DNA of 63,143 nt, filler included, from Nemertoderma westbladi (taxonomy: Eukaryota; Animalia; Xenacoelomorpha): NCBI GenBank assembly GCA_032718475.1. It is 3 parts of 3 records of this genome, joined end to end, with 100 filler letters (N's around TTAATTAATTAA, not from the genome) between each part and the next. Parts side by side here need not be neighbours in the genome. Positions count along the whole stretch, not along the records: positions 24,265 to 50,419 come from JAUCBJ010008386.1; 2 more parts are not named here. One strand, 5' to 3'. Shown here in pieces: positions 8,703 to 63,143 of the stretch. The notes under the pieces are model-generated. The model was not told where the DNA came from. It did no database searches and was given only the letters and a program-made list of their open reading frames with translations. The translations under genes were made by a program, and so were the position numbers. Positions within the stretch are counted from its first letter, which is position 1. Every line of letters starts with the position of its first letter.

Positions 8703-9002
8703 GTAAGTAAGTTTATTTATGTATATTGGTCCCCCATTAATCAAGGCATTAATTATAATGAAATAAAATTCTTATTTTAAATTAAACCATTTTTTAAGAC
8801 CATTTGGCTCAAGCTGTTACTGCGACTGCGACGATTCCCAATATTAATTAAAGTAAAAAATAAAATAATGTTCCATAAATAATTTATTTACGATTCTGTA
8901 AATTCTGTAGCAATTTCTCAAATTATAGCACAATGAATGATGGGGGTATAGAAGTAGGCCTATTAATTATCTAAAGTTAAAGTTTATATGAAATATCTAT
9001 GG

Positions 9003-15461: not shown

Positions 15462-17372
15462 ATGTCGCTTCAGGCCGAATTAATTTCAATAATATGATGA
15501 TACATACTGGCGCACCATAAACAGTCACTGTGTCGATGTCACGAAGTGGACATTCAGTTCATAAACTACCTAATAAAAGATCTATTACATACAAATAAAG
15601 AACTCATTTCGGGATTTCACTTTAGAATCTCCTTAATAATATATCTTAATATTTCACTTCCTCGCATTCCTTACGCTTGGGAAAAGCTTCCCAACCGAAA
15701 TTTCCCGTAAAATTTCGACAAGGAAAGATAATTACTGAAATGACAGGTAATTAAAAATGACTACCTATCTGCAGGACATCCAATTTGTAACAGCAGGGAA
15801 GGACTGTACGGAAATCGAAGGCTACTAGGCCGACTTGCTGTCGTATTGGAGCCACCCCACATGTAACTAAATTTTAAAAATTTTCAAAAAATCTCCGATA
15901 TTTCTCCAAAGGTACTGATTTTAATCTTTGGTGTTTTCGTTTTCATTGAATCCTTTGGTTACATTTTCAACATTTTGTATTTTTTTTTTACATTTTCAAT
16001 TCGTCTTCATTTTTTCACCCGGGGACGAAAGGTGCAAGTACCGGTAATGAAAAAAACAAGTTAGGTTTGTTATAGATAATTGGACAGAATGGTTAATTAC
16101 GTTAATTAAACGTTAATTAGACGGAAAACTGACGGATAAACAGACAGACAGAACTACGAAAACCCCCGTGACAAAAACCTTAGCTACAGTAGTTTGTGTG
16201 TTTTTTATTATAATTGAACGGGCAACTGGCGGAAAAAACGGACAGACAGCCTAACATGCAGTCAGATTAAATTCCACCAAATGCAAAAATTTACATCGGA
16301 ATCTAAAATCATCGACTAGGAAAACTCCCATAACCAATTTTTAGCTGATGACAGTATTTTATTATAACTGGGCGTAAAACTAACGGACAAACAGCCTAGA
16401 TTCCGCTAAACATATAAATTTACATTGTAATTGTAAATGAAATCTCCGATCAGACTAACCTAACTAACGACCACACAACTCTTCTCAACACCGCTCTCAC
16501 ACCACTGACAAATCTGTTTACAAATTGTGTACAAACTTCAGTAAGATCCACTTCTAAAATCATGGTTGTATCATATTATTCTTACATATTGACGGAGAGT
16601 TTGCGTGGGAAAGTTTAAAAGACATTTTGTTTTACTCATTTTACTCCTATTTCATTTATCGGTCATTATTCCTCACTAAAAATGTATCGCCTCCTCCGAT
16701 CTTTGTCCGATTTAACTATGTGTTTTGTTTGAATGCCTTGTCTCTCCTAAATCCTTAGTTTTTTTCTTGCTACTTTATTTTTTAATAGTTCTCGAGAATA
16801 GTGAGATTGAAGCCTGCGTAGTCTATAAAAATACAAATTTTATGACTTACAGTAGTGTCACGAAAAGTAAAAAAGCCAAAAAAAAATTAATTTGCCGAGA
16901 TTAGATATGCGTTTAGTTTCCCCCGGCTGTCTCCTATTATTTCAACATAAGAGTACCGATTCCGAGTTAAAAAGTCCATCCATCTGGTAACTAACTGGTA
17001 GGGATTAAACTGGGAACCAAAGTTCATAAAATTACACATACCAATGAATCGATTTCAATCAATTTCAACTGGACTGTCTCTTTAAATATTAAATAAACGC
17101 TATGGAATGGCTGATTTTAATTCGAAACTTATTAAAATGTTAGTATGAAAGTAAATAATGATAAATTTAACAATAATGTTGAACCACTGGGTACCAGGTT
17201 GAGGCACCTACAGTACGATAATTAACTGGACAACTGTGCCCAATTAACAGTCAAATTTTACCTTAAAAACTAAAATTGTGGTTTCTATTTTCTAAATTTA
17301 AAAATTATGTCAATAATAGGAAATTTTTAATGCAGTTACAACATAATGTTTTACTTTTTGGAAAATATTTTT

Positions 17373-20300
17373 CCCAACTCCTGTTTCACTTCCAACTCCT
17401 GTCCCACTCCCAACTCCTGCCCCACTCCCAACTTCTGTCCCACTCCCAACTCCTGTCCCACTTCCAACTCCTGTCCCACACCCAACTCCAGTCCCACCCC
17501 CAACTCCTGTCCCACTCCCAACTCCTGTCCCACACCCAACTCCTGTCCCACTTCCAACTCCTGTCCCACTCCCAACTCCTGTCCCACTTCCAACTCCTGT
17601 CCCACTCCCAACTCCTGCCCCACTCCCAACTTCTGTCCCACTCCCAACTCCTGTCCCACTTCCAACTCCTGTCCCACTCCCAACTCCTGTCCCACTTCCA
17701 ACTCCTGTCCCACTCCCAACTCCTGTCCCACTTCCAACTCCTGTCCCACTCCCAACTCCTGTCCCACTCCGAACTCCTGCCCCACTCCCAACTCCTGCCC
17801 CACTCCCAACTCCTGCCCCATTCCCAACTCCTGCCCCACTCCTAACTCCTGTCCCACTTCCAACTCCTGTCCCACTCCCACCTCCTGTCCCACTCCCAAC
17901 TCCTGTCCCACTCCGAACTCCTGCCCCACTCCCAACTCCTGTCCCACTCCCAACTCCTGCCCCACTCCCAACTCCTGTCCCACTCCCAACTCCAGTCCCA
18001 CTCCCAACTCCTGCCCCACTCCCAACTCCTGTACGACTCCCAACTCCTGTCCCACTTCCAACTCCTGTCCCACTTCCCACTCCTGTCCCACTCCCAACTC
18101 CTGTCCCACTTCCAACTCCTGTCCCACTCCCAACTCCTGTCCCACTCCCAACTCCTGTCCCACTCACAACTCCTGTCCCACTCCGACCTCCTGCCCCACT
18201 CCCAACTCCTGTCCCACTCCGAACTCCTGCCCCACTCCCAACTCCTGTCCCACTCCCAACTCCTGTCCCACTCCCAACTCCTGTCCCACTCCCAACTCCT
18301 GTCCCACTCCCAACTCCTGTCCCACTCCCAACTCCTGTCCCACTCCCAACTCCTGTCCCACTCCGAACTCCTGCCCCACTCCGAACTCATGCCCCACTCC
18401 CAACTCCTGTCCCACTCCGAACTCCTGCCCCACTCCCAACTCCTGTCCCACTCCCAACTCCTGTCCCACTTCCAACTCCTGTCCCACACCCAACTCCTGC
18501 CCCACTCCCAACTTCTGTCCCACTCCCAACTCCTGTCCCACTCCCAACTCCTGTCCCACTCCCAACTTCTGTCCCACTTCCAACTCCTGTCCCACACCCA
18601 ACTCCTGCCCCACTCCCAACTCCTGTCCCAATCCCAACTCCTGTCCCACTTCCAACTCCTGTCCCACACCCAACTCCAGTCCCACCCCCAACTCCTGTCC
18701 CACTCCCAACTCCTGTCCCACTTCCAACTCCTGTCCCACTCCGAACTCCTGCCCCACTCCGAACTCCTGCCCCACTCCGAACTCCTGTCCCACTCCCAAC
18801 TCCTGTCCCACTCCCAACTCCTGTCCTACTCCCAACTCCTGTCCCACTTCCAACTCCTGTCCCACTCCGAACTCCTGCCCCACTCCCAACTCCTGTCCCA
18901 CTCCCAACTCCTGTCCCACTCCCAACTCCTGTCCCACTCCCAACTCCTGTCCCACTCCCAACTCCTGTCCCACTCCCAACTCCTGTCCCACTCCCAACTC
19001 CTGTCCCACTCCGAACTCCTGCCCCACTCCGAACTCATGCCCCACTCCCAACTCCTGTCCCACTCCGAACTCCTGCCCCACTCCCAACTCCTGTCCCACT
19101 CCCAACTCCTGTCCCACACCCAACTCCTGCCCCACTCCCAACTCCTGTCCCACTCCCAACTCCTGTCCCACTCCCAACTCCTGTCCCACTCCCAACTTCT
19201 GTCCCACTTCCAACTCCTGTCCCACACCCAACTCCTGCCCCACTCCCAACTCCTGTCCCACTCCCAACTCCTGTCCCACTTCCAACTCCTGTCCCACACC
19301 CAACTCCAGTCCCACCCCCAACTCCTGTCCCACTCCCAACTCCTGTCCCACACCCAACTCCTGTCCCACTTCCAACTCCTGTCCCACTCCGAACTCCTGC
19401 CCCACTCCGAACTCCTGTCCCACTCCCAACTCCTGTCCCACTCCCAACTCCTGTCCTACTCCCAACTCCTGTCCCACTTCCAACTCCTGTCCCACACCCA
19501 ACTCCAGTCCCACCCCCAACTCCTGTCCCACTCCCAACTCCTGTCCCACACCCAACTCCTGTCCCACTTCCAACTCCTGTCCCACTCCCAACTCCTGTCC
19601 CACTTCCAACTCCTGTCCCACTCCCAACTCCTGCCCCACTCCCAACTTCTGTCCCACTCCCAACTCCTGTCCCACTTCCAACTCATGTCCCACTCCCAAC
19701 TCCTGTCCCACTTCCAACTCCTGTCCCACTCCCAACTCCTGTCCCACTTCCAACTCCTGTCCCACTCCCAACTCCTGTCCCACTCCGAACTCCTGCCCCA
19801 CTCCCAACTCCTGCCCCACTCCCAACTCCTGCCCCATTCCCAACTCCTGCCCCACTCCTAACTCCTGTCCCACTTCCAACTCCTGTCCCACTCCCACCTC
19901 CTGTCCCACTCCCAACTCCTGTCCCACTCCGAACTCCTGCCCCACTCCCAACTCCTGTCCCACTCCCAACTCCTGCCCCACTCCCAACTCCTGTCCCACT
20001 CCCAACTCCAGTCCCACTCCCAACTCCTGCCCCACTCCCAACTCCTGTACGACTCCCAACTCCTGTCCCACTTCCAACTCCTGTCCCACTTCCCACTCCT
20101 GTCCCACTCCCAACTCCTGTCCCACTTCCAACTCCTGTCCCACTCCCAACTCCTGTCCCACTCCCAACTCCTGTCCCACTCACAACTCATGTCCCACTCC
20201 GACCTCCTGCCCCACTCCCAACTCCTGTCCCACTCCGAACTCCTGCCCCACTCCCAACTCCTGTCCCACTCCCAACTCCTGTCCCACTCCCAACTCCTGT

Positions 20301-20925
20301 CCCACTCCCAACTCCTGTCCCACTCCCAACTCCTGTCCCACTCCCAACTCCTGTCCCACTCCCAACTCCTGTCCCACTCCGAACTCCTGCCCCACTCCGA
20401 ACTCATGCCCCACTCCCAACTCCTGTCCCACTCCGAACTCCTGCCCCACTCCCAACTCCTGTCCCACTCCCAACTCCTGTCCCACTTCCAACTCCTGTCC
20501 CACACCCAACTCCTGCCCCACTCCCAACTCCTGTCCCACTCCCAACTCCTGTCCCACTCCCAACTCCTGTCCCACTCCCAACTTCTGTCCCACTTCCAAC
20601 TCCTGTCCCACACCCAACTCCTGCCCCACTCCCAACTCCTGTCCCACTCCCAACTCCTGTCCCACTTCCAACTCCTGTCCCACACCCAACTCCAGTCCCA
20701 CCCCCAACTCCTGTCCCACTCCCAACTCCTGTCCCACACCCAACTCCTGTCCCACTTCCAACTCCTGTCCCACTCCGAACTCCTGCCCCACTCCGAACTC
20801 CTGTCCCACTCCCAACTCCTGTCCCACTCCCAACTCCTGTCCTACTCCCAACTCCTGTCCCACTTCCAACTCCTGTCCTACACCCAACTCCTGTCCCACT
20901 TCCAACTCCTGTCCCACTCCCAATA
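17373..20925. repeat. 18-bp minisatellite (CCCAACTCCTGTCCCACT)n, ~197 units, with a 2016-bp higher-order duplication
   Basis: Directly visible. Rare variant units recur at an offset of 2016 bp (e.g. 18163 and 20179). Confidence 0.97.
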
Positions 20926-21654
20926 AGTTCTAACTAAAACAATAATTACTTTATTTTATATTTAAACCCATTAACGTCATGAAAAGAATCTGAAATGAAT
21001 ATTCAACCTTGTGAGTTAGCGTGGTTGCTTCCCATTTCATTCCATTAACAGCTAAGAGATAAAACCCTCGTGTACACTCCGATGTTTAGGTTCAGGTTCA
21101 ACAATAAGACTGCAATAGTCGTGTTATAATGTTATAATTTTGTAATATATTACTATATTTAAGTAATATATTGGTTCGCAGCGAATTCCCCACGAAGCAA
21201 CGTGTATATTCAATAAAGTTGCTCTGAGACTGGTAAGCCCCAACCATCTAAGTTTAACTGCTCTAATTACTTATACCATATGTAACGTCCGCCCAACACG
21301 TCACGTATGGGATAGCTGTCACTTATAAGATTTGACAGTTTTTTTTCAACCTCGACGCATAAATTTTGAAGTAGCAGTCTTTCTGATACAACCCATACAT
21401 GGGAAAAATATCGAAGGAATGGATGTGATGATCTAAATGTGCATCAGTTCGCGTTTTTTTTTATGATAAAAAACCTCCTTCACGTATGGCAGTAATGGGA
21501 CACTTTATTTTGATAATTTTGGACATGATCCCGCAAGTTATTCATGCACTGATTAACTACGATAATTTCCCATCTAACTGAAACATATGGAAGAATGAGT
21601 GTGAGTGTTAACACATCGTTTAATGGCCCACATTTGCCAATTTATAGCCATTAA

Positions 21655-22020: not shown

Positions 22021-23235
22021 TTAATTCCTCTTTCCCCTTTTCCGACATTTTCGCCCAGTTTGCTGCTCAACGTCTCCCTTATCTAACGACGGCTCCTCTG
22101 TTACCCGTTTACGATTGGTTTTGGTAACGGCTCGTTTATTGGGAGATTTATTCGGTCTAATCGGCGAATCTGGGGGCGATGACGACGAAGAATCGGCACA
22201 AACTTGGTCGAAGAGAAGATCTAAATCCGCACTCGCTATCGTATCGTCGGACACGGCAGGGTCTCTACTGAAAGTAACAGTGGGCTGTTTGGCAGTCCTG
22301 CCAGACCGCTGGGTATCGGGCTGCCTCGCCATACACTTCTGTTTAAGTCGCGATCTTCTCCCCCCGATAGAGAGAGTTCTCTCATCCGCGTTGTTTTCGC
22401 CGCCAATAGCAGCGGATCCCGAGTCCACGGTCGCCATAGCAACGGTTCCCCCGTCGTCGGTCGCCATAGCAACGGGTCCCGTGGCGCGCCGCGCATCGCA
22501 GAGCGCCGTTATTGCGTCACCGATCCCGGGGCGGATTAAATCGATGTCCCGCGGCGGTTTCTCCCCCGCGACTAGCTCGCACTTAATGCGGTGGTACGTC
22601 GAGTGGATGGTAGACAGTTCGGAGAGGAGACCCGCGTCCGACAGCTCGGTGAGTGCGTTGGCTTCTGGCTCCTCGTACAGACCGGAGGAGAGAACTACGT
22701 CGCTGGATTCGCTCTCATCCTTTTTGCGTCGACTCAGTGGGATGAGGACTGGGGTGGCTGCAGCGCAGTACTGGAAGGCGGATAGTTCGCAGAGTCGTCG
22801 ATATACAAACTCCGCGTCCCAGTGTCCGTTCGAGACGATGAACTTAATGAGAGACTGGAGATTGCCGAGGGTTTCAGCGGTAAGCCGGATCTTGACGGGC
22901 GCCTCGCAGGGTTGGCTGAGGTATAGAGCGTACAATAGGTACAAACAACCGGTTCGTGCCTGGACGTTGTGCGAAGGGCGGAGGAATTCCGTCGCTACGA
23001 ATAATGCCCTTTCAGTGAAGTAGTACTGCTCCGATGCGGAGCTCAGACCGATAAACACGAGTGGGAAATTCATGTCGCGCCAGATTTTGCTGAAGACTTC
23101 GAATCGAATACTGTCGGTTTCAACAAATTGGTGAAGAAGTTTCTCGCAGTCGGATTTAAAACCGGCTGAAACAAATTGTTTGTTAGAGTAGGTATCATCC
23201 AGCGGAAAACGCTCAGTACAAGGAATCGTAGCCAT
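22021..23235 (-). CDS. SNAPC1: snRNA-activating protein complex subunit 1 (SNAP43), intronless CDS
   Basis: N-terminal SNAP43 domain (DCEKLLHQF..SIRFEVFSKIWRDMNF; RTGCLYLLYALYLSQP..VKIRL) and a basic C-terminus. Confidence 0.9.
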   Translation of the reverse strand: MATIPCTERFPLDDTYSNKQFVSAGFKSDCEKLLHQFVETDSIRFEVFSKIWRDMNFPLVFIGLSSASEQYYFTERALFVATEFLRPSHNVQARTGCLYLLYALYLSQPCEAPVKIRLTAETLGNLQSLIKFIVSNGHWDAEFVYRRLCELSAFQYCAAATPVLIPLSRRKKDESESSDVVLSSGLYEEPEANALTELSDAGLLSELSTIHSTYHRIKCELVAGEKPPRDIDLIRPGIGDAITALCDARRATGPVAMATDDGGTVAMATVDSGSAAIGGENNADERTLSIGGRRSRLKQKCMARQPDTQRSGRTAKQPTVTFSRDPAVSDDTIASADLDLLFDQVCADSSSSSPPDSPIRPNKSPNKRAVTKTNRKRVTEEPSLDKGDVEQQTGRKCRKRGKRN

Positions 23236-23754
23236 TTCAGTTTATTTATGCCGATATATATTAGGAACCGCAGCCTACCGCTAACAGTAACGGTACCGTA
23301 CAGCCGCACAGCAGTAGGTATTTTATTTTAACTGCTGAAATAGTAAAAAAAGTATCGGAAATAATAAGCAAATAATTAGTGACTAAACATCGCCAATTTC
23401 AATAGACCGAAATTAAAATATTATGTTCCGATTGAGAGTTTGCAAGAGTTGGCAGGTTTTTAGGCTTCAGATAAAATACCATCGATTTCAGATTTCAATG
23501 CACAAGATCGAGGACATGAAGACATAAATACACAGGCACTCGGCACTGTATATGAATTTCGGTCAAGTCAACAACAAAAAAACATAAACAACTAATGGCC
23601 AAGAAAGTTCTTGACGATACGTTTTTTTTATCAAAAATTCACTCATCTGCGTAAACATCCTATCGAAAGCTGTAAGTTTACTCCACTGGGGCTTGAACTC
23701 ACGACCTTTTGGATTAGAGACAATGTTTTACAATTTTTTTATATACATCTACAG

Positions 23755-24264: not shown

Positions 24265-27200
24265 GAGTGTCTTGGTCTCTGGCAGATCATCTTTGATCAA
24301 ATCGAGATCTTTCGCCCCTCGATCTTCCACAGGGATCGACTCCAGAAACTCACGGGAGTTGCTGGTGAATTTCGTTAATCGAAACCCACCTCTTTTTAAG
24401 CACTCTACCGTTCCTTTAGCGACCTCAATGGCTTCCTCAACTGATGGGAGGGACTTCAGATTGTCGTCCATGTATATGTCTCTTTTGATGTTGTCGATCA
24501 CTTCCTTAGAGAATGCCTCTCGGTTGTCCTCTGCAGTAGTACGCACTACCGAACAGGCGTTGGAAGGGCTTGAGATTATCCCAAAGGCCTGGATGGTCAT
24601 CCAGTACTCCACCGGTTTCTGGTTGAGGTCTCCTTCGGGCCACCATAGAAATCGTAGGCTATCTCGATCCCTATCCAACACTTTGACTTGCAAGAACATG
24701 CCTTCTATATCGGAGGCGAAAGCAATCGAATATTGTCTCAATCTTAAAAGAATCCCCAACAAAGATTGAAGTAAGTTGGGTCCGGGTAACAATTCAGAGT
24801 TAAGGGATTGACCCATGTAAAGAGCGGAGCCATCAAACACTACTCTCACTTCATTAGGTTTACCGGGTTTAGGAACGTAATGGTGAGTTAAATAATACGT
24901 TCTTTCAGTCACAGGTGTTTCTTCCGGTACTCTCTCCGCATATCCCTTATTAATGAATTTTTCCAGCTGTGTTTGATACATTGCTTTAGCTGATGAATTA
25001 GCCGTAAGGCGTCGATGGAGTTGCGCGATTCTTTTTTCCGCCAGGGGTCTATTATTGATGAACTTCGGTTCTCTCTTGCGAAAAGGTAAACCGACTTCGT
25101 ATCTTCCTTGATCTTTGAGGAAACGTGTAGTTGTCTCTTGGATCTGCTTGGCCCTTTCCTCTTCCACCGACAAGGCTTTATCGTAGGAATTGGGCTCTAC
25201 CGCCTCTTGCGTAAAGAATCGTACAGCATGTTCATCTCGAGTCTTGGCATTGCAACGTTCAATGACGTCATTTAACTCGTCGTTATAAGCTTCTCGTTCA
25301 GAGGGATAGAGAAGTTGACATAAGTTAACTTGGTTTTGCCAAGCCTCGTTTTCCTTAAGGAGATCGATGGTATTCTCCTCATCAAAAAGCTGGTGAACGT
25401 CGTCGTTATCTGAGGAGTATGGAATTCCCTCAGTTGAATCGTCTCCTTCACTAGCATCATCTTCCCATTCACTCACCTGGCAGACTCTCTCTTGCGGTAG
25501 TCTTTCTCTGAGTGTTCTACGGGAAGGGCCAGTAAAGTACCAACCTACTCTAGTTCTCACCGCATAGGTCTGTAGGGGCTGCGGTTGAGCAGGCCGTTTC
25601 TCTAACGTCTCCAGCGCCTCATGCGCGTTTTGGCCGATGAGTATTTGCACTCCAGGATAATCAGTCTGGAATCGAGGTATGTTAAGATGTTGGATGCTCT
25701 CATCTTCGTCCCAATTATAAAGGTCTGCTTGAGTAGTAGCGAAGTTCTTTATAGCCACCATTTTCACTGACCTTATGCTGTTTTCTCCTAATTCGTCCTG
25801 GGGGGTGGACAATGCTCCTACATAATAATCAGCTGTTATTGTAGATTTCCAAACTTGCATAATGCCTGACATGTTGAGCTTAGTTTGGAACTTGGGTTGT
25901 CCAGCAAATATATCTTCGGCTAGCTCTTTATCGATGAATGTTCCTGTGCTGCCGGAGTCCAGGAGGGCGTTCACTATATAACTCCGTTTAGGTCCGTGCA
26001 CCCTTACCTGCACCACAGGAAACTCTCGGATCCCTACATTGGAAGATGGCTCTTTCCAAGATGGTTGTCGTTCAGAAGTAGTTAGAGTAAAGTCGTTCTC
26101 TGTATCTTTTTCATATGTGAGTGCTCGATACACTGCGGTATTTATCATGTAACAGGATTCGTTTTCGTCGGAGAACTCGTCTGTATAGAATCCTTCCATC
26201 TCAGATTGATCAGTGTCGTTCACATCACTGAATTGGACATGTAGCTCGGAATCACTTACCTGATTCGGACTATTTCGATCGAATTCAGCGTGCAACAAGG
26301 TATGATGTTTCGCACCACACTTTGCACACCTTATGTCAGAGAAACAGGTTCGTCGTTGGTGTCCTTGTCTGAGGCAATTATAACATAACCGCTTATCCCA
26401 CATGACTTCGCGTCTCTCTGTTAATGATTTCTTTAGAAATTCATCACACCTATTCAAATGGTGGATCCCGTCGCACAGCGCACATTTTGGTTTGATGTTA
26501 CTTACCTTGTTTTGAGTCACATTGTGTACACTTGCCTTTTCTTCGGGTTTTCTCACCTGAATTCTCTTGGGAGACGTGGGAGGAGTTTTTCTTACCTGTT
26601 CCCTCCTGTCATTTGTTCGAGACTTGAATTTACTTACCTGATCTTTAGGCATTTTATTGACATAATAAGATCTATCAGTGTCTTTCCCGCTATCTTCTCC
26701 TTGAGAAGTCTGGCTTTCGCCGTCGTCTGTATAACATACTGGTGTTACCTTTCTCCTAGAGACGGGTTTTTCACTTACCTTGTTTTCCGGTGTCTTCTCC
26801 CTAGACAGTTTCAGGAGCTGTAATTTCACTTCTCCATCTAGGAATGACATGAGATCAGCCATGGTAGGGTCTCGTCGTTGTTGTTCCATCATATATAACA
26901 CTTTCTTATCCCAGCGTGTACCTACTCCACCTTTCGGTAAAGTAGAAGCCACTGCTCTAATAACCATAGTGTTCTGATACTCATGAGACTTACCTAGCCA
27001 ATCTAATTGTCTGCAGATCTCCTGGATCTCATCGGAAAACTCGATAATTCCGCTACTAATAAACTTTCGGGGCGCTACTAACTTTGCATATAAGTACCCA
27101 GCGATATTATTCCTATTACCATACCTGATGTTTAGTGTATCCCAAACTTGTCTTAATCCGTCTGGATGTCCAATAAACTTTAACGCCATTAACTTGGGAG

Positions 27201-29715
27201 ATCCTTCCAAGCACTCGATGAGGTATCTAAGTTTTTCTCCATTAGATAGTACAGAGTTCTGTATGTTATCTTTGTAATATTCATTAAAAGGTAACCATTT
27301 CATCTCATCTCCATTGAACTTGACAATCTCTCCCACCTTTACCGCTTGCCGGGCTTCGGTTCTAGCCATTTGACGCGTAAAACTTTCTTGGGCCATCGTG
27401 TTATTTAATATCGAGTTATCGGTATATAAATTTCTCGGATTATGATCAGCTCTATATGGAATATCATTATCAACAGGTCTATAATTACCCTTAATAGGGT
27501 TCACTATAGGAGTTTCAACTTCGCTAGCAGTATATATGCGTGTAGGCTCCACACCTTGCGCATGCGATACTTCAGACCTAACAGGTTGACACATTGTTAC
27601 AGAGGGTGGTGGTATACCCTTTTGGGTATTTACTAATTTATCGCGTTCAAGCGCGATACTTTGCTGCACTTCTTGCAACTCTAGCCTACTTTCCCTTACT
27701 GTGCCCTTGAATTGCTGGACAGTCTCCTGCATCTGCCCGAGCAGGATATCCATCCCCCGCCGTCTCTCGTCCACCCATTCGACCGCCGAAGCGGGAGTCG
27801 CCAACGTTGTAGCGGGCGGACGAGGGACAACGGGCGACAAATTGTGAATATTTCGCTCGGGGTCCAGGACCTGAACTGTCTCCTGGGCAGTTCTGCGGGG
27901 CACAGGTAGCTTAGTGCTATGCAGAGGGAATTTAGAGGTAACTTCAGGGAGCACAGGGGTGTCTATCACCGAAGGGGTGATTTCAAGAACAGGCCTAATT
28001 ATTTCAGGCTCATCTACTATCGTAGGGAGTCTTTCTATTTTAATTATTTGGTCTGTGGGTTCTGTACTGCCTAAGTTGGTGCTATTTAGTTGCCTTCTAA
28101 CAGCTGGAGGCAAATCAGGCAATTTCTGACGGTGGAATGTTCTTTTACGTCTGCTTAGACGAGATCTATTTCCTTTGCCGTCAGTATCGGTAGTATCGCC
28201 TTCCTCAGATGATGTATATCCCTGCCTTTTGGGAGTAGATCGATTCATCATCTGCATATTACTAGCTGTTAACTGTTTATTTATGCAGTCTTGATTCTCC
28301 TGAATGTTTTCCAATTCTAATTGGGTGGTTTCTTCAGCCGCTTTCCGTTCTGCTTCTGCCACTTTTGCCTCTGCCGCTGCCTCTGCCGCTGCCTCTGCCG
28401 CTTTTGCCTCTGCCGCTGCCTCTGCCGCTTTTGCCTCTGCCGCTGCCTCTGCCGCTTTTGCCTTGGCCGCTGCCTCTGCCGCCTTTGCCTTGGCCGCTGC
28501 CGCCTTTCTTTCTGCTTCTGCAGCTACCACTGCTGCTTTCTTTCTGTCTTCTATACGTTTTTTCTTTACTTGTTCTTCTTGAACTCGTGTGATGCGGAGT
28601 TGTTCATCGAATTTAGCCTGATTCGCAGCCCTCATTTCCACATTGATGGCATCCAACACAAGCTTGGTTCCTTCACTATTAGGGCTAAGTCCCTCTAACC
28701 TTCTCCTCAACTCGTCATCACCTAAAAAACGTTGATAGTCTGACAGATAGATGTCAATGGCATCCCTCTTATGCGGTTTCTCTGCCGTCGCTTCACTTTC
28801 CACTTGGGAAAAAGTAGTGTCTGTTGATTCTCCATGGGTTGAGCGCTCCTCTAGCTGAGCTTTCCACTGAGCTGTTCCTTGAACCTGGAGACTCACCCGT
28901 TGAAACCAAGTCTTTACGGCAACTTGCAACGACGTGTCTTGCCTTCGTTTAGAAGCCTCCTCAAAGGCCGATAATATTAGCCTGATTCGTAGAATTCTTT
29001 CTCTAACTTGATAAAGCAGCAATCCCTGCTCTTGAGGTCCTTGAGGTTGTTGAAACAGTTGTTCTTTTAATCGCTCTATAGAGCTGAAGAATCCCTGTGC
29101 GTATCCGGCTGCGGACCTCTTCCACACAGCTGGATCGATGGTTTCCTTGGCTACTCCCATCCGGTGTATGTCTTCCCAGGCAGCTTCTGATAAATCAAAC
29201 GGGAGTCCGGGTCCGGGGAAGTTCCATTGCGACTCGACAATAGACTTCAGTTCTTCACTCGTGTATCCCGCATAACTATCTCTAGTTGACCGTTGACTTC
29301 TCGCCCAATCGATCTGGTGTTCTTCCACCGCGATCAATAACCTAGTGAGTACGGCTGCAGGAAGGATGAGAAGGGGATCCGTATAAACCGCATCCGTCAT
29401 CTCTTCTCCGCGCCCGGGTGTCAGCTCTACAGTATCCTCACTACTGGAGCTGCTGGGCCGCTGAGGAATAAGTTCTTGACTAGCGGGTTGTTGCTGTTCC
29501 GCTGCTTCTTGGTCCCGTTTGACCTGAGCTCGAGTGCCTATGATAGACCTACGATGTTGGACCAGCCTAGGTTCTTTTATTACTACTGGAGGGATGACTT
29601 TCCTCACAGTGGGAGGTGAACTGAACTTACGACTAGAAGGTTCTACGCCTCTATCTGAGTCGCAGATAGTTACATCTAATAAACTGTCTGACAGGTTCTG
29701 CTTAGTATCAGACAT
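24265..29715 (-). CDS. BEL/Pao LTR retrotransposon Gag-Pol polyprotein, truncated at the gap
   Basis: Pao-type Gag core, triple Cys/His knuckles (CALCDGIH, CYNCLRQGH, CAKCGAKHHTLLH), protease LLDSGST, RT motifs RVVFDGS / SLNSELLPGPNL / YMDD. More than 1800 uninterrupted codons. Confidence 0.95.
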
Positions 29716-31069
29716 GTCTATGTATACCGTTGAATGTCTACTGCTGTATTACAGTCTGAGCAAGTCTAGTAACTCAGTATTAACTGTTAGCCTAGTAATT
29801 AATTACCGGTACTGCTACTCAGTGTAGTAGGATATATAATATATTAGAACACCGGTATGCTTATGGTATATATAACTATATAAGTATTATTACAGACTAG
29901 GTTTATCACAGAATACCGGTATAATTTTAGCACAAATATATATAAATATATAATAGGCCTATCGGGAATACCGGTATACAGCTTACAGTTTGTAGTATAT
30001 ATAATTCTGGACTAGAATTAATTACAAGTACCGGTATAATTTCAGCCTAAATTTATTGAAATAAAGATAATAGGCCTATCGTAAGTACCGGTATATCAAT
30101 TATTTTAAATAATTGAATTTCTGAATTTTAAGGGTTACTTGGTTACTTTAACTTACTGTATTACCGTGATTTAAGCAGTAGTCCAACTGATATTGAGACC
30201 TAATGGTTGTATGGCAGGCCTACTATTTATAAATCGTTTGAGTTGATTTATAATATATATATACCCGTTTAATGGGTTTTGTCAATGTTGAAATAAATGT
30301 TATTATTTCTGGGGGGTAATCACTACACAAAGCGGTGCGCTTTTAGTTAAGTGTTACTTATAGGACACTAAAACAAATAATTCTAATTTACCTAAGTTAC
30401 TTATTACTACAAATTACGTACAATTCGGGTGAGATTACAATCTCTAAATAAACACAAAAATTTACAAAAAACACAAAATACTAATTTTTAGGGTAATTTT
30501 ACAAGAAGTCTACAAACCAGCCTAACAAAGGGTTAGAATCTGGTTATTACAACTGACAGGGTACTGCGGTATTTGAAAATAATACGTAGTAGTAAGTACA
30601 CTGCGTTGTCCAGATAGGAAAATACCACCGCCTGACGACCTATAGCCGTATCGCTATAGGTACTACGTTATGTATCACGGAGTGTTCCTACCTAGAAGTT
30701 AATAGAGCTAATCGAACGTGCCTATCAACCACTTTACAACACAAATATAATGCCTACACTAATTACTTTCGGAAAGCACTGTACACTAAACCCTAAATTA
30801 GGTACAAGTACTTGTATAACAAATAATCAGTAGTTAAATATACTTGAACAGCTAAAAGAACCACAGCATCTGCTGGAGTGACCGATGCACAAAATCACCA
30901 GTCTTTACCTACGCCGAGCAGCCCGTGTAGTACCGGGGTTAATTTAACTATAGCGGTATGTATAACAAACACAATTACTGTAGGAACAAACTTGGGGAAT
31001 GAATGTTGCGAATAATCGCATAAACTCTGAATAATAAATATTACGCTACGCGTACAAACCACTCAAACA

Positions 31070-31605
31070 AAATACAGACCGAACACTGACAGACTACTAT
31101 CAAGCCTAAACAAACTACGGTATATGCAGACTCCGAAATGATTAGGGAGTATGCGCTCTAACCCAGTAGTGCGACTTATTCTTTAGTTGGGGGTTTACCT
31201 TACAGCGTTCGCTGCCCCTACTGCCTAACCGTACTTAATCGGACAGATGATCTACACACGCGGTAATCCGTTCAGACCTAATAACAGCCAGACAACTATC
31301 CAGCCTACAAATTATCTAAATAAAATTATACGCTACCCGTACAGACTTACCCAAACAAAGTACAGACCAAACGATGGCAGACTACTCTCAAGCCTAAATA
31401 AACTACAGGACATGCAGACTCCGAAATGATTAGGGAGTATGCGCTCTAACCCAGTAGTGCGACTTATTCTTTAGTTGGGGGTTTACCTTACAGCGTTCGC
31501 TGCCCCTACTTCCTAACCGTACTTAATCGGACAGATGATCTACACACACTGCAATCCGTTCAGACTTAACAGCAATCAGACAACAGCTCAGCCTACAAAT
31601 TGTCT
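31070..31605 (-). repeat. 288-bp tandem duplication in the Pao leader with a conserved ~140-nt structured core
   Basis: Core 31120-31260 is almost identical to 31410-31549, while the flanks are more diverged. Confidence 0.9.
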
Positions 31606-31885
31606 GTACAATCTGATCAGGCTTACACGCCTTCTGTTCAATACTGGCCTACAAACAAATAAAACTTGACAGAAATAAGTTAAAATCTCAATAAAAAACC
31701 AGGGCGGGCCCTCCCTGATTAATTATTAAGGCCTACCGGTATATAATTATCAAAATCGAATAATACTGCTGTACCTGTACTGCTGTAGGTACCGGTCCGG
31801 GTGGTTAGGTAGTCAGGCCTACTGGGTACCGGTTGCCGGTACTTCAGCTTTATTGCCTACTGCAATACAGAAGCTATATCCTTTA

Positions 31886-32525
31886 ATGTTCGCGCTTTTA
31901 GACCTTTGGCAGTTTAACCCACCAAATTAAGATGTCTTCTAGATATTAAATCGGTTTTTAGTCTATGACAAGTATTTGATTCACTACACTAGTCGAAACC
32001 AATCTGTGCGCGATCATTCACCCGCTGGATATTCCCGGGAGATTGGGTTCGACGGCTTAAATTTTATTGCTATGTAAGCCTAATGTATTATTCGACTGAC
32101 AGTATTATATAATCTCTGACAATATTATTCACCTTCGGGAATATTAACAGTTCCTTTAGGACGTGGCGCTTTATCTATATAAACAGAGTTATGACTTAAA
32201 CTACTCACAACGATATGGCTTAATTATAATTCACATATATGGCGCATTCTTTAGGAATTGCTTCTTTAAAAGACTCACTCATACACAATGCTGCACAATA
32301 CTGCACACTAATCTGCCAATCTTCACTGATTTTAGTCACATATAAAAGGAACACAGACTGACTCATGTAGGGTCTATCAAATAACATTAGATTCACTTCA
32401 AACCACTTTAACATAAGTCACAATCGTTATTGGTAACCTTTCTCTCTTACCTTCGGTATATCAAGAATATTGGGTTTTCGGGGTTATTTCTCGTTATTCC
32501 AATATAATAATTCATCAACAAATAT
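31886..32525 (-). ncRNA. Putative large cis-acting structured RNA in the Pao leader, copy 1
   Basis: Colinear homology to 62381-63037 with compensatory changes in several stems. Confidence 0.7.
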
Positions 32526-33121
32526 AATGAATAACCGACAACAAATAGCAGTACACAGTATCGATTGAGCAGGTAATTTTAGCAGTTTCAGCAGTTATTA
32601 AAAGCCGTGTGTCAGCAGTCAGTGTATTCCCAGATCAGTGATTCCATGAGTTTGATCGGTATGTCAGTTAAAGGATATATGCCCTTATAATTAAACCTAC
32701 TAGTGTAAGACTAAAAACTGAAAACACGGAGGTGCCAAAAGCCGGTTCTTAGGCTCTGGGCAAAAAACATAACACTGAACTACTGAGTTTCTGTATATAC
32801 CTCCAACACAGGGACAACAAACGCTCTGATTGGTCAACCTGAACAACGAGAGAACAAAGAAACAAAGAAACGTCGACGTGGCAATATCAGCTGCTAGCCG
32901 TCGTCATGGTAGCGACACTGTTTTCAAAGTATCCAGCTATTGCGTCACGAGATTGTGGATTATGTCCTCTAAAGTACAAATACAGTAAAAATACATAAGA
33001 AATGACTTTTATGTCCTCTAAAACACCAGTACAGCAAGGACACGGTCTTTTTATGCCTGGCAAACCAACTACAGAGTACTTTAAGGGAAAATAACCGGCT
33101 AATTACGCAAAAGCTTTTACA

Positions 33122-36440: not shown

Positions 36441-36717
36441 GTCACTGAAAGGTTTTAAGTAGGCCTATTTGGCTATTTACTACTGCGTCTCTTCTGGTAC
36501 CGGTACTGCGGTAGCCGGTAGGTAGACCTGTAGACCGGCAATGTCAGCTTGGAGGCCGTACGCCTCCGCCTCCGCCTCCGAACGTACTAAACATATGTCA
36601 TTAAATTTGTAGGCCCTTCAGCCCTTGTCAAGATTTCAATAAGCCTATTCCAGTATTCATTGCAATTTTGGAGTTTGGCTACACCAGTACACCTTCCATT
36701 GCTGCATTGATAGGCTA

Positions 36718-39246
36718 ATGGATTCACATAACAGAAGTCGACATAGTGATAATCATTCGAGTTCTTCGCGAGATAAACATCGTCATGGCGACAGAAAGAA
36801 ATATCGTCACAGAGAAAGTTCGAGTGAGGACGAGGAACTGAAAGCCAAACTGCGTCAGCGGGAGGAGCGAATACGCGACAAGGAAGTGATGAAATCGTTG
36901 GAGACCCCAGAGGAGAAACGGGCTAGGAGATTAGCGAAGAAACTAGAGAAAGAAAAACATCGTAAGTCTGAGATCGGTTGGGATTCCGAGTTAATGGGAT
37001 ATTCGAATAAAGATAATCCATTTGGAGACGGCAAACTGTTAACCCCGTTCGTATGGAAGAAAAAATATAAAACAGAAGTGGACAAACATGATGAGGAAGA
37101 TGAGGCTGATCCCGATGATATTAACTCTTATAGGATTCAACGGCAGCAGTTGTTGGAGAACCGGAACGAGTTGGAGAAAGTGAAGAAGCGTAGACGGGAT
37201 AGGGAGTTGGAAGTGGCTACAAGGGACAAGGAAGTGGAGATGATGCAACGAGAGAAGGAAATCTCGTTGTTTAAGGAGTGGGAGTCCCAGGAGGATAAGT
37301 TCCATCTACAGCAGGCCAAGTTGCGATCGCGACTGCGCGTTAGCGACGGTCGAGCCAAACCCATCGATCTCCTCGCGAAGTACATAGCGGCGGAGGACGA
37401 TGAGTTAGCGGTGGAACTCCACGAACCCTACACCTTCCTTATCGGACTCACTGTGGGGGACATCGAGGATCTTATAGAAGATATCCGAGTCTACATGGAG
37501 TTGGAAGAAGGTAAAAATGCTGAGTTCTGGAAGGATATGACTTTGGTTGCGAGTAACGAAATGGGTAAACTCAAACGAATCGATCCCAATTACACAGGTG
37601 GTGATGGCGGCGCTGCCCGAGATAGTATAAATTCCTCGGTGTCTGAAGAGATAGGGAAGGTCCTAAGGGGTAAATCGGTGGAACAACTCGACACCATGAG
37701 GGTATCTATAGGGAGGAAGTTGTCTGGGAGTCAGTGCGTTGATGTTAGTTACTGGGAGCAGCTGTTGGGCCAGTTGGATGCCCACATTGCGCGGACTAGA
37801 TTGAAGGATAGACACCAGCAGGTGCTGCAGAGTAAACTCTATCAGTTGAAACAGGAGCAGGGAGTAGAGGGAAGGGTGTTGTTCCCAGTGGAAGGGGGTC
37901 GTGGAGATGGGGGTGGGGAAGGCGGTAGTGGGGTGGGGCTGGGAAGGGAAATTGGTAGTGGGGAGGGGGGCGGAGGGGAGGGGGGCAGAGGGGAGGGGGG
38001 CAGAGGGGAGGGGGGCAGAGGGGAGGGGGGCAGAGTGGAGGGGGGCAGTAGGGAGGGGGGCAGTAGGGAGGGGGGCAGTGGGGAAGGGGGTAGTAGGGAG
38101 GGGGGCAGTGGGGAAGGGGGTAGTAGGGAGGGGGGCAGTGGGATGGGGGGCAGTGGGGAAGGGGGTAGTAGGGAGGGGGGCAGTGGGATGTGGGGCAGTG
38201 TGGAAGGTGGCAGTGGGATAGGGATGGAAGGGGGTAGTAGGAAGGGGGGCAGTGGGATGGGGGGCAGTGGGGAAGGTGGCAGTGGGATAGGGATGGAAGG
38301 GGGTAGTAGGGAGTGGGGCTGTGGGATGGGGGGCAGTGGGGAAGGGGGTAGTAGGGAGGGGGGCAGTGGGATGGGGGGCAGTGGGGAAGGTGGCAGTGGG
38401 ATAGGGATGGAAGGGGGTAGTAGGGAGGGGGGCAGTTGGGAAGGTGGCAGTGGGATGGGGATGGAAGGGAGTAGTGGAAAATATAAATGTATTGACTGGG
38501 ACGAACCCAGTGTTATTGGGACTGGAAAGGCAACGACGGTGAAAACAGAAACTGAAGAGGAACCCTCGAGGGTGGAGGAGTCCCCCATGGAGGAGTACTA
38601 CCGACAGTACGAGAATGGTCGTTACTCCCCAGACCTGATGGACCCGACTTCCTTGCCACGCGATCTGCTAACCGTCTCTCCTGTCGACGACGCTAAACGC
38701 CTCGACGTTAAACGCAGACAGGTCCTCGGGACGGGGACCGTGGCTTCCGACGCCGACACCCAACTGTTCGAGCGCAAAGCGCGGGAGGGCATGGGGGGCG
38801 ACGAGGCCGAATTCAGCGTGGAGGTCTCCACGGAGACGCCGTCCATGCACGTCTGGTCCGATAAGTACCGACCCCGGAAACCGCGGTACTTTAACCGCGT
38901 CCACACCGGGTTCGAGTGGAACAAGTACAACCAGACCCACTACGATATCGACAACCCGCCCCCCAAGATAGTCCAAGGCTACAAGTTCAACATATTCTAC
39001 CCCGATCTCATAAACAAACGCGACACGCCGCAGTACCATCTCACGTCGGTAGCTGGCTCGGGGGGTGGATCCTCCCAGGACTTCGCCATGCTCCGTTTCT
39101 CCTCGGGTCCCCCCTATCAGGACATCGCCTTCAAGGTTGTCAACCGGGAGTGGGACTTCAGCCACAAACACGGATTCCGTTGTCAGTTCACTAACAATAT
39201 ATTGCAGTTATGGTTCCATTTTAAGCGTTACAGATACAGAAGGTAA
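36718..39246 (+). CDS. CACTIN: Cactin, spliceosome C complex factor, intronless CDS
   Basis: [33 protein letters not shown], and the C-terminal domain [23 protein letters not shown]...FKRYRYRR. Confidence 0.97.
37895..38478 (+). repeat. G-rich 15/21-bp coding minisatellite within cactin
   Basis: GGGGGCAGTAGGGAG-type units encoding [15 protein letters not shown], with the frame preserved. Confidence 0.9.
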
Positions 39247-45610: not shown

Positions 45611-47947
45611 TTAGTCCCAGGAATCTCCTGGATCTGTACCAAAACCACCACCTCCGAATCCACCCACATCTTGGCTGGATCCATTGGTCATTCGACTGCC
45701 TCCACCTCTTCGAATATCTCTAGACTCTGAACTGAATGCAGATGTTGTACCGACAGCACTGTATGCCGCTCGTTCCAGGAAGTCTGGAACCTCCTGATTG
45801 GCGTTTTTTAACACCTCCACTAAACTTCTCACCAGAGCAGAATCTTCATCAGCATTAAAGAAGGAAGTTGCGGTCCCTAGATTCCCAACACGTCCAGTTC
45901 GACCAATACGATGTACATATTCGTCAATCTCCTTAGGCAAATCGTAATTTACCACATGCTCCACTTTGGGTATGTCTAGACCTCGAGCAGCCACTGATGT
46001 AGCAACACAAACCGGTTTCTGGCCAGACTTAAAATCACGCAGAGCCTCTTCACGCTCTCTCTGTTCCCTGTCTCCATGAATACTGGTAGTGGGGAAATCC
46101 TTCTGGCACAAAAGACTGGCTAAGAAATCAGCTGTCCGCTTCTTCTCAACAAAAACGAGAACACGATCAGTTGGTGACTTATTAAGAATTTCAAAAAGCT
46201 TGGCTTGTTTATCACTCTGACTATCAGCTTCAAAAAGCACTTGCTTCACATCAGTATTGGCACCTCCAACTCTTCCAACTTTGAGGAACAAATAGTTATT
46301 GAGGAATTCAGCAGCAACCTGTTGGATTTCAACTGGGAATGTCGCACTGAACATAAGCGTAAGGCGTTCACCTTTAGGCATCATACCATGGTTATTAACT
46401 ATCTCCTTGATGTCTCCCATAAAACCCATATCAAGCATTCTATCAGCCTCATCCAAGACAAAGTATTTCACTTTAGCCAAACTAACACGGCCCTCATTGA
46501 CAAACTGCTTTAGACGACCTGGTGTTCCCACCAATAGGTTACATCCTTTTTTGAGTTGCATTGTCTGATGTGCAACACTGACTCCACCATAAACAACACA
46601 AGGTCGAATGATTGTTGAGTGGGAGAATTTCTTAGCTTCATTGAAAATTTGAATGGTCAATTCTCTCGTGGGAGATATTACAAGAGCTTGCGGTTCCTGA
46701 ACTGCAGACATACTCCCTGAAACAAGACCATCTTGCATCATCCCTGTTAAAATAGGCAGAAGGAAAGCAGCTGTTTTCCCACTTCCAGTTTGAGCACAGG
46801 CCATGATATCCCTCTGATTTAAAATATTTGGTATAGCATAACGTTGGACTGGGGTTGGTTTCAAGTAACCTGCTTTTTTAACATTCGATTTAAGTGTGTC
46901 AAGAAGTTGTGCTTGATCAAAGGTATCAATAGGTGATAATGGATTTGCGCCATTGATTTCAACATTGATGTGGAAATATTTATCGAAATTAATCCCCATG
47001 GAAACACCAGTTTGAAATATTCCAGCTTCATCTACTTCTTCAGGAACATATGTCACTGCTTTCGGTTTATTGGGATCATCAGGAATCTCACAGTCCCTGG
47101 CTAAATGATCACCTTGGCACTTATAGCAACCTTTTGATGATGCGGGAGCATTGGGACATTCACGAGAAAAATGGCCCTCCTCTCCACATTTGAAGCAACC
47201 AGTGCCACCCTTCGACGGACTGCCTGCATTTGGACATTCCCGAGCAAAATGCCCATCTTCACCGCATTTTCTGCAGCCAGAAGAAGGATTAGTATTACTA
47301 GTAGTTGCATTGCCTGTACCAAATCCTCCAGAGCCACCAGTGTCTGTTGCTGCTTTCCAATCAAATCCTCCCGACTGGTCCCCACTAGATCCACCAAAAC
47401 CCACACTAGATGAGGCAAAACCACCACTAGAGGAATTTTCTGTACAATCTCTTGACATGTGTCCTTCTTTGTTGCATTTATAACATTTCATTGAGCCACC
47501 TCCCCTAGCTACTTTTTCCTTAGTGCAATCTCTAGACATATGACCTTCCTCCTGACAATTAAAGCACTTATTACCACCACCACCTCCTCTGCTTACTCTT
47601 TCCTTAGTGCAATCTCTAGACATATGACCTTCCTCCTGGCAATTAAAACACTTATTACCTCCACCACCTCCTCTGCTTACTTTTTCTTTAGGACAGTCCC
47701 TGGACATATGACCAGTTTCTTGACAATTGAAGCACTTATTATCGCCACTACCACTATGACTTGCAGAGGACTGAAAGCCCCCAGAAGACTGGAACCCAAA
47801 CGATGGTTTAGATGTAGAGCTAGAAGAATCTCCAAAACTAAAGCCACGACCGGCACCAAATCCACCAGATGAACTGATTGGTCCGTTTGAACTACTACCA
47901 ACTCCGTTCATTCCACCAAAAGACGTTCCTTCATCCCAATCGTCCAT
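45611..47947 (-). CDS. vasa: Vasa DEAD-box RNA helicase, intronless CDS, 7 CCHC knuckles
   Basis: Likely start MDDWD at 47947. Motifs MACAQTGSGKT, PTREL, DEAD, SAT, ARGLD, HRIGRTGR and an acidic C-terminal DSWD. CCHC repeats are typical of invertebrate Vasa. Confidence 0.95.
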   Translation of the reverse strand: MDDWDEGTSFGGMNGVGSSSNGPISSSGGFGAGRGFSFGDSSSSTSKPSFGFQSSGGFQSSASHSGSGDNKCFNCQETGHMSRDCPKEKVSRGGGGGNKCFNCQEEGHMSRDCTKERVSRGGGGGNKCFNCQEEGHMSRDCTKEKVARGGGSMKCYKCNKEGHMSRDCTENSSSGGFASSSVGFGGSSGDQSGGFDWKAATDTGGSGGFGTGNATTSNTNPSSGCRKCGEDGHFARECPNAGSPSKGGTGCFKCGEEGHFSRECPNAPASSKGCYKCQGDHLARDCEIPDDPNKPKAVTYVPEEVDEAGIFQTGVSMGINFDKYFHINVEINGANPLSPIDTFDQAQLLDTLKSNVKKAGYLKPTPVQRYAIPNILNQRDIMACAQTGSGKTAAFLLPILTGMMQDGLVSGSMSAVQEPQALVISPTRELTIQIFNEAKKFSHSTIIRPCVVYGGVSVAHQTMQLKKGCNLLVGTPGRLKQFVNEGRVSLAKVKYFVLDEADRMLDMGFMGDIKEIVNNHGMMPKGERLTLMFSATFPVEIQQVAAEFLNNYLFLKVGRVGGANTDVKQVLFEADSQSDKQAKLFEILNKSPTDRVLVFVEKKRTADFLASLLCQKDFPTTSIHGDREQREREEALRDFKSGQKPVCVATSVAARGLDIPKVEHVVNYDLPKEIDEYVHRIGRTGRVGNLGTATSFFNADEDSALVRSLVEVLKNANQEVPDFLERAAYSAVGTTSAFSSESRDIRRGGGSRMTNGSSQDVGGFGGGGFGTDPGDSWD

Positions 47948-48084
47948 GATGATACCAAAATTTAAACTATCAGAACCGAACAACAGCAATAATAATACTA
48001 AGGATTAGTAAACAAACAAACAGTAGGCCTATATTACAGGGTTATATATTCCATTCTTATATTACATAAGAGCAAAGTAGGACC

Positions 48085-60686: not shown

Positions 60687-62376
60687 AAAATATCGAGACA
60701 TGAAAAATATCGAGAGTAAAAATAACGCGAGTAAAAACATCGAGTGTTGAAAAATAACGATAATATCGAGAGTTCAAAAAATATCGAGAGTAAAAATATC
60801 GAGGGTAAAAATATCGAGAGTAAAAATACCGAGTGTTGAAAAATATCGAGAGTAAAAATATCGAGAGTAAAAATATCGAGTGTTGAAAAATATCGAGAGT
60901 AAAAATATCGAGTGTTGAAAAATATCGAGAGTAAAAATATCGAGTGTTGAAAAATATCGAGAGTAAAAATATCGAGTGTTGAAAAATATCGAGAGTAAAA
61001 ATATCGAGTGTTGAAAAATATCGAGAGTAAAAATATCGAGTGTTGAAAAATATCGAGAGTAAAAATATCGAGTGTTGAAAAATATCGAGAGTAAAAATAT
61101 CGAGTGTTGAAAAATATCGAGAGTAAAAATATCGAGTGTTGAAAAATATCGAGAGTAAAAATATCGAGTGTTGAAAAATATCGAGTGTTGAAAAATATCG
61201 AGTGTTGAAAAATATCGAGTGTTGAAAAATATCGAGTGTTAAAAATATCGAGTGTTGAAAAATATCGAGTGTTGAAAAATATCGAGTGTTGAAAAATAGC
61301 GAGTGTTGAAAAATATCGAGAGTAAAAATATCGAGTGTTGAAAAAGATAGAATGTTGAAAAATATCGAGAGTAAAAATATCGATAGTAACAATTTTTTTA
61401 AATAAGGGTTGTATGATAATTTTTTACTAAAAATGTTCTAGAACAACAATATTTATCAACATTTGGTAGCTTATAAGGTACGTGTTCTAATATAATATTA
61501 AACAATATTTATAATATTTATCAAAATTTATAGCTAGCACTTCTTTTATAATATTTATTAAAAAAATAGCAAAAACTAGCTAGTATAATAAATCTGGTAA
61601 ATGGGTACCCAAGGTGTATTACATAATGCCATTCACTTGCACTGTTGTAACCCATGCACTGCAATATTGTTCCATAATTCTAAATAAAATGCTCAAGTAA
61701 AATGCAATATTTTTACTCTCGATATTTTTCAACACTCGATATTTTTCAACACTCAATATTTTTCAACACTCGATATTTTTCAACACTCGATATTTTTACT
61801 CTCGATATTTTTACTCTCGATATTTTTCAACACTCGATATTTTTCAACACTCGTTATTTTTACTCTCGATATTTTTACTCTCGATATTTTTCAACACTCG
61901 ATATTTTTCAACACTCGATATTTTTACTCTCGATATTTTTACTCTCGATATTTTTCAACACTCGATATTTTTACTCTCGATATTTTTACTCTCGATATTT
62001 TTCAACACTCGATATTTTTCAACACTCGATATTTTTACTCTCGATATTTTTCAACACTCGATATTTTTCAACACGCGATATTTTTACTCTCGATATTTTT
62101 CAACACTCGATATTTTTACTCTCGATATTTTTCAACACTCGATATTTTTACTCTCGATATTTTTCAACACTCGATATTTTTACTCTCGATATTTTCCAAC
62201 ACTCGATATTTTTCAACACTCGTTATTTTCGATATTTTTCATCTCGTGTTATTTTTACTCTCGATATTTTTTAATCACGTTAATTTTCAACACTCGTTAT
62301 TTTTACTCTCGATATTTTTACTCTCGTTATTTTTACTCTCGATATTATTCAAGTCTCGATATTTTTCACCATTACC
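60680..62376. mobile_element. Foldback-like element: two inverted ~680-bp arms of 15/17-bp AAAAATATCGAG repeats around a ~320-bp spacer
   Basis: 60684-61385 is mirrored by 61706-62368. Confidence 0.85.
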
Positions 62377-62380
62377 ATGT

Positions 62381-63037: not shown

Positions 63038-63143
63038 GGTACAATTAATAACTGACAGTAAAATAACAGTACAAACAATATGATTAATGCAGTTAAATTA
63101 AGTAAGTATGTTAAGATGCGTTAAGATTCGTTAGTGAGTAGTT

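Follow-up and report, generated by a model that had tools for sequence, protein, structure and literature searches.

Genes and a BEL/Pao Element in the Window

The window analyzed here is the whole stretch of 63,143 nt from Nemertoderma westbladi (GCA_032718475.1), and all positions count along it. Besides a BEL/Pao element, it contains the genes vasa, cactin, and SNAPC1, plus several LINE pieces, while no tRNA gene was found in it. SNAPC1 (22021-23241), cactin (36643-39246), and vasa (45611-48004) each consist of one uninterrupted frame; vasa includes six CCHC knuckles, and a glycine-rich repeat lies within cactin (37660-38670). A lectin/LDLa gene (9000-11630) seems to contain short introns. 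Two tandem arrays were recognized, one made of some 196 copies of an 18-bp unit, in which the C skew is extreme (17250-20940), and a 16-bp satellite in two inverted blocks (60770-62370), which adjoins one of the two LTR copies described below. The features of the element are listed in Table 1.

Table 1. Positions of the BEL/Pao element, its LTR signals, and its predicted RNA structures in the window.
Feature	Position	Strand	Remarks
gag-protease-RT frame of the BEL/Pao element	24265-29715	-	DUF1759 match, translation, RT homologs
True leader, 2171 nt, nearly AUG-free	29716-31886	-	
Splice-acceptor-like pyrimidine tract and CAG	31860-31873	-	ends 27 nt past the LTR
Position of the primer-binding site, without TGG	31875-31886	-	not a tRNA 3'-end site
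5' LTR (copy A), about 1031 bp, TG...CA	31887-32917	-	imperfect 6-7 bp terminal inverted repeat
Candidate pseudoknot, or a switch, pairing 32013-32008 with 31895-31890	31890-32013	-	6 invariant pairs
Hairpin (b) and 4-bp enclosing stem	31900-31937	-	near the LTR end
Helix (a), inner CCCG/CGGG stem and invariant loop	31992-32053	-	just 3' of AATAAA
AATAAA poly(A) signal	32063-32068	-	sole one in the LTR, also present in B (62573)
Most conserved block (93%)	32116-32185	-	TATA-like box at 32181, 29-nt invariant run, weak hairpin
Hairpin (c), CUAAA loop	32244-32261	-	one double change
Candidate intron-like segment, 77 nt	32374-32450	-	AG/GT donor, CTAAT branch-like motif, YAG
Candidate self-primer	32668-32679	-	exactly complementary to the 12 nt right after the LTR
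Copy B, 3' or solo LTR of a sister subfamily	62381-63143	-	5' end at or beyond the window edge

The Gag protein of the element contains DUF1759 (PF03564, E-value 1.9e-11), and three Cys-His boxes are visible in its translation. Protease and RT follow in this order, with the motifs LLDSGS and YMDD, and the frame is interrupted past the YMDD motif by an assembly gap at 24264. The RT has 791 homologs; among the 120 listed, the identity is 41-48%, PF05380 is found on nearly all, and the named hosts are urchins, corals, bivalves, and fish. The element belongs to BEL/Pao by its proteins (Gag, protease, and RT), in agreement with the earlier note on this DNA. Its RT forms a long branch with no supported neighbor, the nearest of 22 loci standing at 47%. 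Viral contigs gave no match to the RT alignment.

LTR and Leader

The sequence under study is present in two copies, A and B. It had been placed in the leader of the element, but it lies in the LTR: the homology between A and B stops exactly at ...GAACA (31887 and 62381), where the repeat also ends. Public contigs aligned on copy B diverge into three continuations at 62379-62381, and the summed contig depth, which does not equal copy number, steps at the same place. Over copy A, contig depth falls at about 32930, and the TG at 32917 and the LTR 3' end together make up an imperfect inverted repeat. From this fall and the mirrored TG we infer a 5' LTR end at 32917, hence an LTR of about 1031 bp whose 3' 640 nt or so make up the conserved stretch. 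The LTR thus has TG...CA ends, the 3' one fixed by the homology stop and the contig joints. Copy B is followed by satellite DNA rather than a leader and is therefore a 3' or solo LTR; a second LTR of the copy A element was not found within the window. From one run, 38330 contig pieces matched copy A, and with tens of thousands of such pieces the family is highly repeated. The conserved stretch is almost certainly the 3' two-thirds (about 640 nt) of the LTR of this high-copy BEL/Pao element.

The true leader contains 3 ATG vs 33-42 expected (P about 3e-11). The depletion is seen on the sense strand only, the antisense strand being normal, and the same test on nine control stretches gave P from 0.035 to 0.94. 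The LTR keeps its AUGs, with nine in 32679-32153 of A and four in the last 311 nt of B, and the AUG purge begins at the LTR end. This distribution suggests that ribosomes would scan from an entry at or just past the LTR end. Splicing to the acceptor-like site beyond the LTR would give such a boundary; acceptor-like sites occur at 3.6 per kb in control DNA, so the site at 31860 is weak alone. The bolder reading is an IRES at the LTR end, which would place the AUG boundary at the same point. The leaders of relatives that were checked mostly have less than 160 nt to the first ATG; the leader here is 2.17 kb long. The leader also includes a tandem 290-bp duplication with 88% identity (31026-31605, minus strand), and its repeat unit 31605-31315 folds as a long rod (z -3.2).

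Conservation between the Two Copies

Copies A and B align at 70% over 749 columns (31887-32582 with 62381-63102, E-value 5e-87). The colinear diverged homolog reported earlier is thus present, and all the strings cited from the two copies were found in place. The conservation is block-like: there are 8 invariant runs of at least 12 nt vs 1.9 in column shuffles, a number reached by 1 of 2000 shuffles, and the longest run is 29 nt. Only 3 of the 11 indels are multiples of three, the differences have no codon phase, and the longest ungapped block (197 columns) has stops in every frame of both copies; a protein-coding frame fails to explain the conservation.

The conserved stretch has no match in Rfam at gathering score or useful E-value, including the IRES, ribozyme, and retroviral cis-element families, which upholds the earlier view that it belongs to no known family. 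An exact scan with the longest invariant block found no match in viral or metagenome contigs. Among 89 related loci, blastn and nhmmer searches with both LTRs gave only short hits at chance level. With a covariance model of the 3' domain, A and B were the sole matches. The fold described below seems family-specific.

Several of the invariant blocks resemble signals of transcription and splicing. The most conserved block has the highest contig depth in the alignment on copy B and is a possible core promoter with a start near 32152. The hairpin at 32150-32116 in R has a pair probability near 0 in both copies. The intron-like segment is 77 nt in both copies without gaps (62958-62882 in B), vs about 80-120 nt by eye for apparent host introns nearby. 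Its AG/GT donor pattern occurs at 0.03 per kb in 32 kb of control DNA, and the donor -3 base varies only between C and T. We take the motifs in these invariant blocks to be a CTAAT branch-like motif with a T tract, and YAG with an AP-1-like TGAGTCA. Among the contig joints listed, neither an intron-less LTR copy nor a spliced joint was found, and the predicted spliced junction has no useful complement in the element. The remaining invariant blocks are hairpin (c), the run from the TATA-like box to 32142, AATAAA, and the LTR end. We infer from these motifs that the upstream invariant blocks are probably promoter and splice signals.

Predicted RNA Structure at the LTR 3' End

The evidence for a fold comes from two full sequences, A and B. 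Helix (a), which starts 10 nt after AATAAA, has 12 pairs, among which four are changed on both sides between the copies, one is changed on one side, and none is broken. One contig, seen in two runs, has a variant at 62547 in this helix, which makes a U-G pair on the minus strand and an A-C mismatch on the plus one. In helix (b), three of the 8 pairs have one-sided changes, all of them G-U on the minus strand, and the pair probability of this hairpin is 0.99-1.0 in both copies. Helix (c), whose strings were likewise found where the earlier note had them, has 6 pairs including one double change, and in four runs both of its partner sites, 62773 and 62788, are variable in similar proportions, the variation being the same as the A-versus-B change. 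The pairing-preserving changes proposed for these helices are therefore real features of the two copies, and the strand-specific G-U pattern supports the minus strand as the folded one.

Among 261 shared helices of at least 5 bp, three double changes occur only in the inner arm of (a). Some helix with three double changes appeared in 12 of 60 column shuffles, and an equally G-U-poor one in 1 of 60. In paired columns, 16 of 19 differences are transitions vs 64 of 135 elsewhere, with the helices chosen from the same two sequences. Other long-range helices, having one or two double changes, did not exceed their frequency in shuffles (5 vs 3.5 for at least two) and were dropped.

All six pairs of the candidate pseudoknot between the loop of helix (a) and the LTR terminus never vary, hence they speak neither for nor against it; the duplex has -11.8 kcal/mol. 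Nested folding of A chooses the loop-to-terminus stem (0.98) and that of B chooses helix (a) (0.4-0.7), a difference that would fit either a pseudoknot or a switch.

Taken in full, the conserved stretch has a folding z of -1.1 to -1.2 on either strand and in either copy. The 3' domain (186-197 nt) has z -3.9 in B, where it beats 200 of 200 shuffles, and only -1.4 in A, while the upstream 453-460 nt have z -1.2 and +0.3 in the two copies. On the minus strand, 120-nt windows with z of -2 or lower within the stretch are confined to the 3' 210 nt or so; on the plus strand, a few scattered ones have z -2 or lower. The single fold of about 650 nt claimed in the earlier note is not borne out, as the signal lies in the last 190 nt or so and the majority of the invariant blocks coincide with ordinary signals of an LTR. 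What stands is local RNA structure under selection, indicated by the covariation in helix (a) and the minus-strand G-U pairs, and the RNA fold in the last 190 nt or so of the LTR is very probably real.

One further pairing was considered. The invariant 11-nt block 32085-32095 is exactly complementary to 31756-31766, 120 nt past the LTR end (13 bp, -15.5 kcal/mol); since 27 of 50 shuffles reach 11 nt somewhere in the leader, it is kept as a lead only.

Primer Site and Likely Self-Priming

The Belpaoviridae profile gives an 18-nt primer site for tRNA-Arg or tRNA-Gly and LTRs of 0.2-1.2 kb; it describes the replication of BEL/Pao elements as poorly understood and the elements as tRNA-primed (PMC8742986). 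Such a tRNA-Arg/Gly site was not found here: there is no TGG after the copy A LTR or in the nine relatives scored. The bases following the LTR have instead an exact 12-nt complement inside the LTR itself, and the conserved stretch sits between the two segments, in what would be a loop of 781 nt. Both the absent tRNA primer site and the intra-LTR complement are features outside the earlier note. When the match is anchored at the first base past the LTR, 0 of 100 shuffles reach 12 nt (expected 0.0014). The primer/primer-site duplex has 15 bp with one bulge (-16.6 kcal/mol), and the cost of forcing it is 0.8 kcal/mol.

The same arrangement was looked for in related loci. Nine of the 89 have an LTR end fixed from two LTR copies and were scored; 15 of 24 inspected repeat pairs stayed unscored, their LTR end being missing or unclear or the pair duplicating a scored family. 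The allowed offset was raised from 3 to 4 nt after L022 and L086 had been inspected. Each primer site was compared with its own LTR, which gave matches of 12, 12, 10, 8, 11, 11, 11, 9, and 11 nt, that is, a complement of 9-12 nt in eight of the nine distant relatives; L082, with 8, is inside the control range. In swapped controls, matches of at least 9 nt were found in 2 of 88 and of at least 11 nt in 0 of 88. In seven of the nine, the match spans the junction of a canonical GT-AG intron of 71-451 nt in the LTR (L022, L027, L030, L037, L073, L084, and L085), and in one it is 11 contiguous nt. L022, L030, and L082 apparently have more than one intron. In L084 and L085, which are near-copies, the exon end and the primer site change together. 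Nine BEL/Pao elements among the related loci (L081-L089), several with both LTRs, come from assemblies labelled bacterial and are probably host DNA in bins.

The loop between primer and primer site is 44-251 nt in the relatives vs 781 nt in the window element, and their U5 regions have z below -2 in one of nine only. Since these relatives likely self-prime with a short and mostly unstructured U5, and the fold is absent from the 89 loci, self-priming in this group needs no such fold.

Two other leader starts, found at loose contig ends of one run, are homologous to that of A and have a different primer site. Eight of their first nine bases form a complement to 32152-32145 (expected 0.02 in 640 nt), a segment 29 nt below a second TATA-like box in both copies, and the two starts are also similar to the sequence that flanks A's own primer. 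The subfamilies may use two starts and two primers, much as Tf2 has two starts (PMC5341516), or all of them may use the upstream site with co-changing sequence.

Judged from sequence, it is likely that the element primes reverse transcription with its own RNA instead of a host tRNA. In the open literature searched, descriptions of BEL/Pao self-priming, LTR introns, and LTR RNA structure were not found, and term searches of PMC3118150 and PMC554778 gave no mention of a primer site.

Proposed Role of the Fold

The favored reading, held with moderate confidence, is that this is a BEL/Pao LTR without a tRNA primer site, likely self-primed, and that the predicted fold of about 190 nt serves that step on the genomic RNA. 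An unspliced transcript starting upstream of 32679 would contain the primer, which would pair with the primer site and close the 781-nt loop. The U5 helices and the loop-to-terminus pairing would hold the LTR end for cutting, by RNase H as in Tf1, and for packaging, and helix (a) may also dampen the adjacent poly(A) signal. If an LTR donor were spliced to the acceptor-like site past the primer site, the folded, AUG-rich region would be lost along with the poly(A) signal and the primer site, and the product would be an AUG-poor mRNA for Gag-Pol. Among the functions suggested earlier for this RNA, a role in packaging or reverse transcription is the likeliest, and on balance the fold probably serves priming or packaging. 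The concentration of structure at the LTR 3' end near the primer site counts for this, while the z of -1.4 for A's 3' domain alone and the nested fold of A, which disfavors helix (a), count against it.

The fold could also be real and serve RNA processing only, by hiding or presenting the poly(A) site or by binding an export or packaging factor, unrelated to priming. The HIV poly(A) hairpin and the HTLV Rex element are likened to this. Helix (a), so close to the only AATAAA, would cover the expected cleavage site, and the relatives self-prime without a comparable fold; but an invariant loop complementary to the LTR terminus, adjoining the primer site, is left unexplained, and this role by itself is rather unlikely.

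A more ambitious alternative regards the stretch as an autonomous large RNA machine, either an LTR-end IRES for the 2.2-kb AUG-poor leader or a ribozyme that frees the primer. The AUG purge does start where the candidate pseudoknot ends, C/U-UAAA loops recur, the primer needs a 3'-OH, and the fold has no known family. However, 450 of the 640 nt give no fold signal, the acceptor-like site past the primer site explains the AUG boundary equally, and Tf1 uses RNase H. Both strands were scanned with core patterns of the hammerhead, HDV-like, and twister ribozymes and of group I and group II introns, without a hit. Such a machine is quite improbable. Decidedly improbable, too, is the boldest model, in which the LTR would carry an undescribed pseudoknotted RNA device that cuts the self-primer without RNase H, or switches between priming and ribosome loading onto the AUG-purged leader.

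That A and B are two merely related LTR subfamilies, with blocks that are DNA-level promoter or integrase signals and hairpins due to chance, is very improbable: the 12 of 60 shuffles above and a 6-nt LTR-end complement in 71 and 129 of 500 shuffles would allow it, but the double changes of helix (a) without a broken pair, the transitions in paired columns, the 200 of 200 shuffles beaten by B's 3' domain, and the strand-specific G-U pattern tell against it.

If the favored reading of a self-primed LTR with a fold serving genomic RNA is correct, the folded U5 and the AUG-purged leader would be a case for sorting one LTR transcript into genome or message. The sequences point to tRNA-free self-priming in a branch of BEL/Pao from marine invertebrates, and in most relatives the primer would be assembled only by host splicing. 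This opens the start of reverse transcription in an entire retrotransposon family to direct testing. The surprise of finding a structured R-U5 region here is limited, since many LTR elements have one.

Comparison with Known Systems

The HIV TAR and poly(A) hairpins and the HTLV RxRE are examples of structured retroviral R-U5 regions, and retroviruses, like Ty1, are tRNA-primed. A pseudoknot has reportedly been described at the Ty1 5' end. The element resembles these 5' ends in its R-U5 hairpins by the poly(A) signal and in a long-range candidate pseudoknot near the primer site, but it has no sequence or Rfam similarity to them.

Like Belpaoviridae (PMC8742986), the element has a DUF1759 Gag, three Cys-His boxes, protease, and RT in one frame, and an LTR length within the range. 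Unlike them, it has no TGG site; its primer site is complementary to its own LTR, its leader is 2.2 kb long, and its RT sits on a long branch. The tRNA-Arg/Gly site in the ICTV profile is taken as descriptive, BEL/Pao being defined by proteins.

The closest parallels are found in Tf1, Tf2, and Tj1 and the Tf1/sushi group. In Tf1, the first 11 nt and an RNA structure are used for RNase H cleavage (PMC7175516); for Tf2, two transcription starts are described, the alternative of which can exclude the primer (PMC5341516). As in these elements (PMC7175516, PMC4600332, PMC5341516), the primer site here finds its complement in 11-12 nt of LTR RNA from the element itself, and structured RNA, here predicted, lies between primer and primer site. 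Unlike Tf1/sushi, the element has BEL/Pao proteins, not those of a Ty3/gypsy chromovirus, and a 781-nt loop, and in its BEL/Pao relatives the complement is split by an intron. By this analogy, drawn here from sequence, the element likely works like Tf1 and is not a Tf1/sushi member. Taken together, this is a BEL/Pao element that likely primes itself and whose LTR end is very probably structured.
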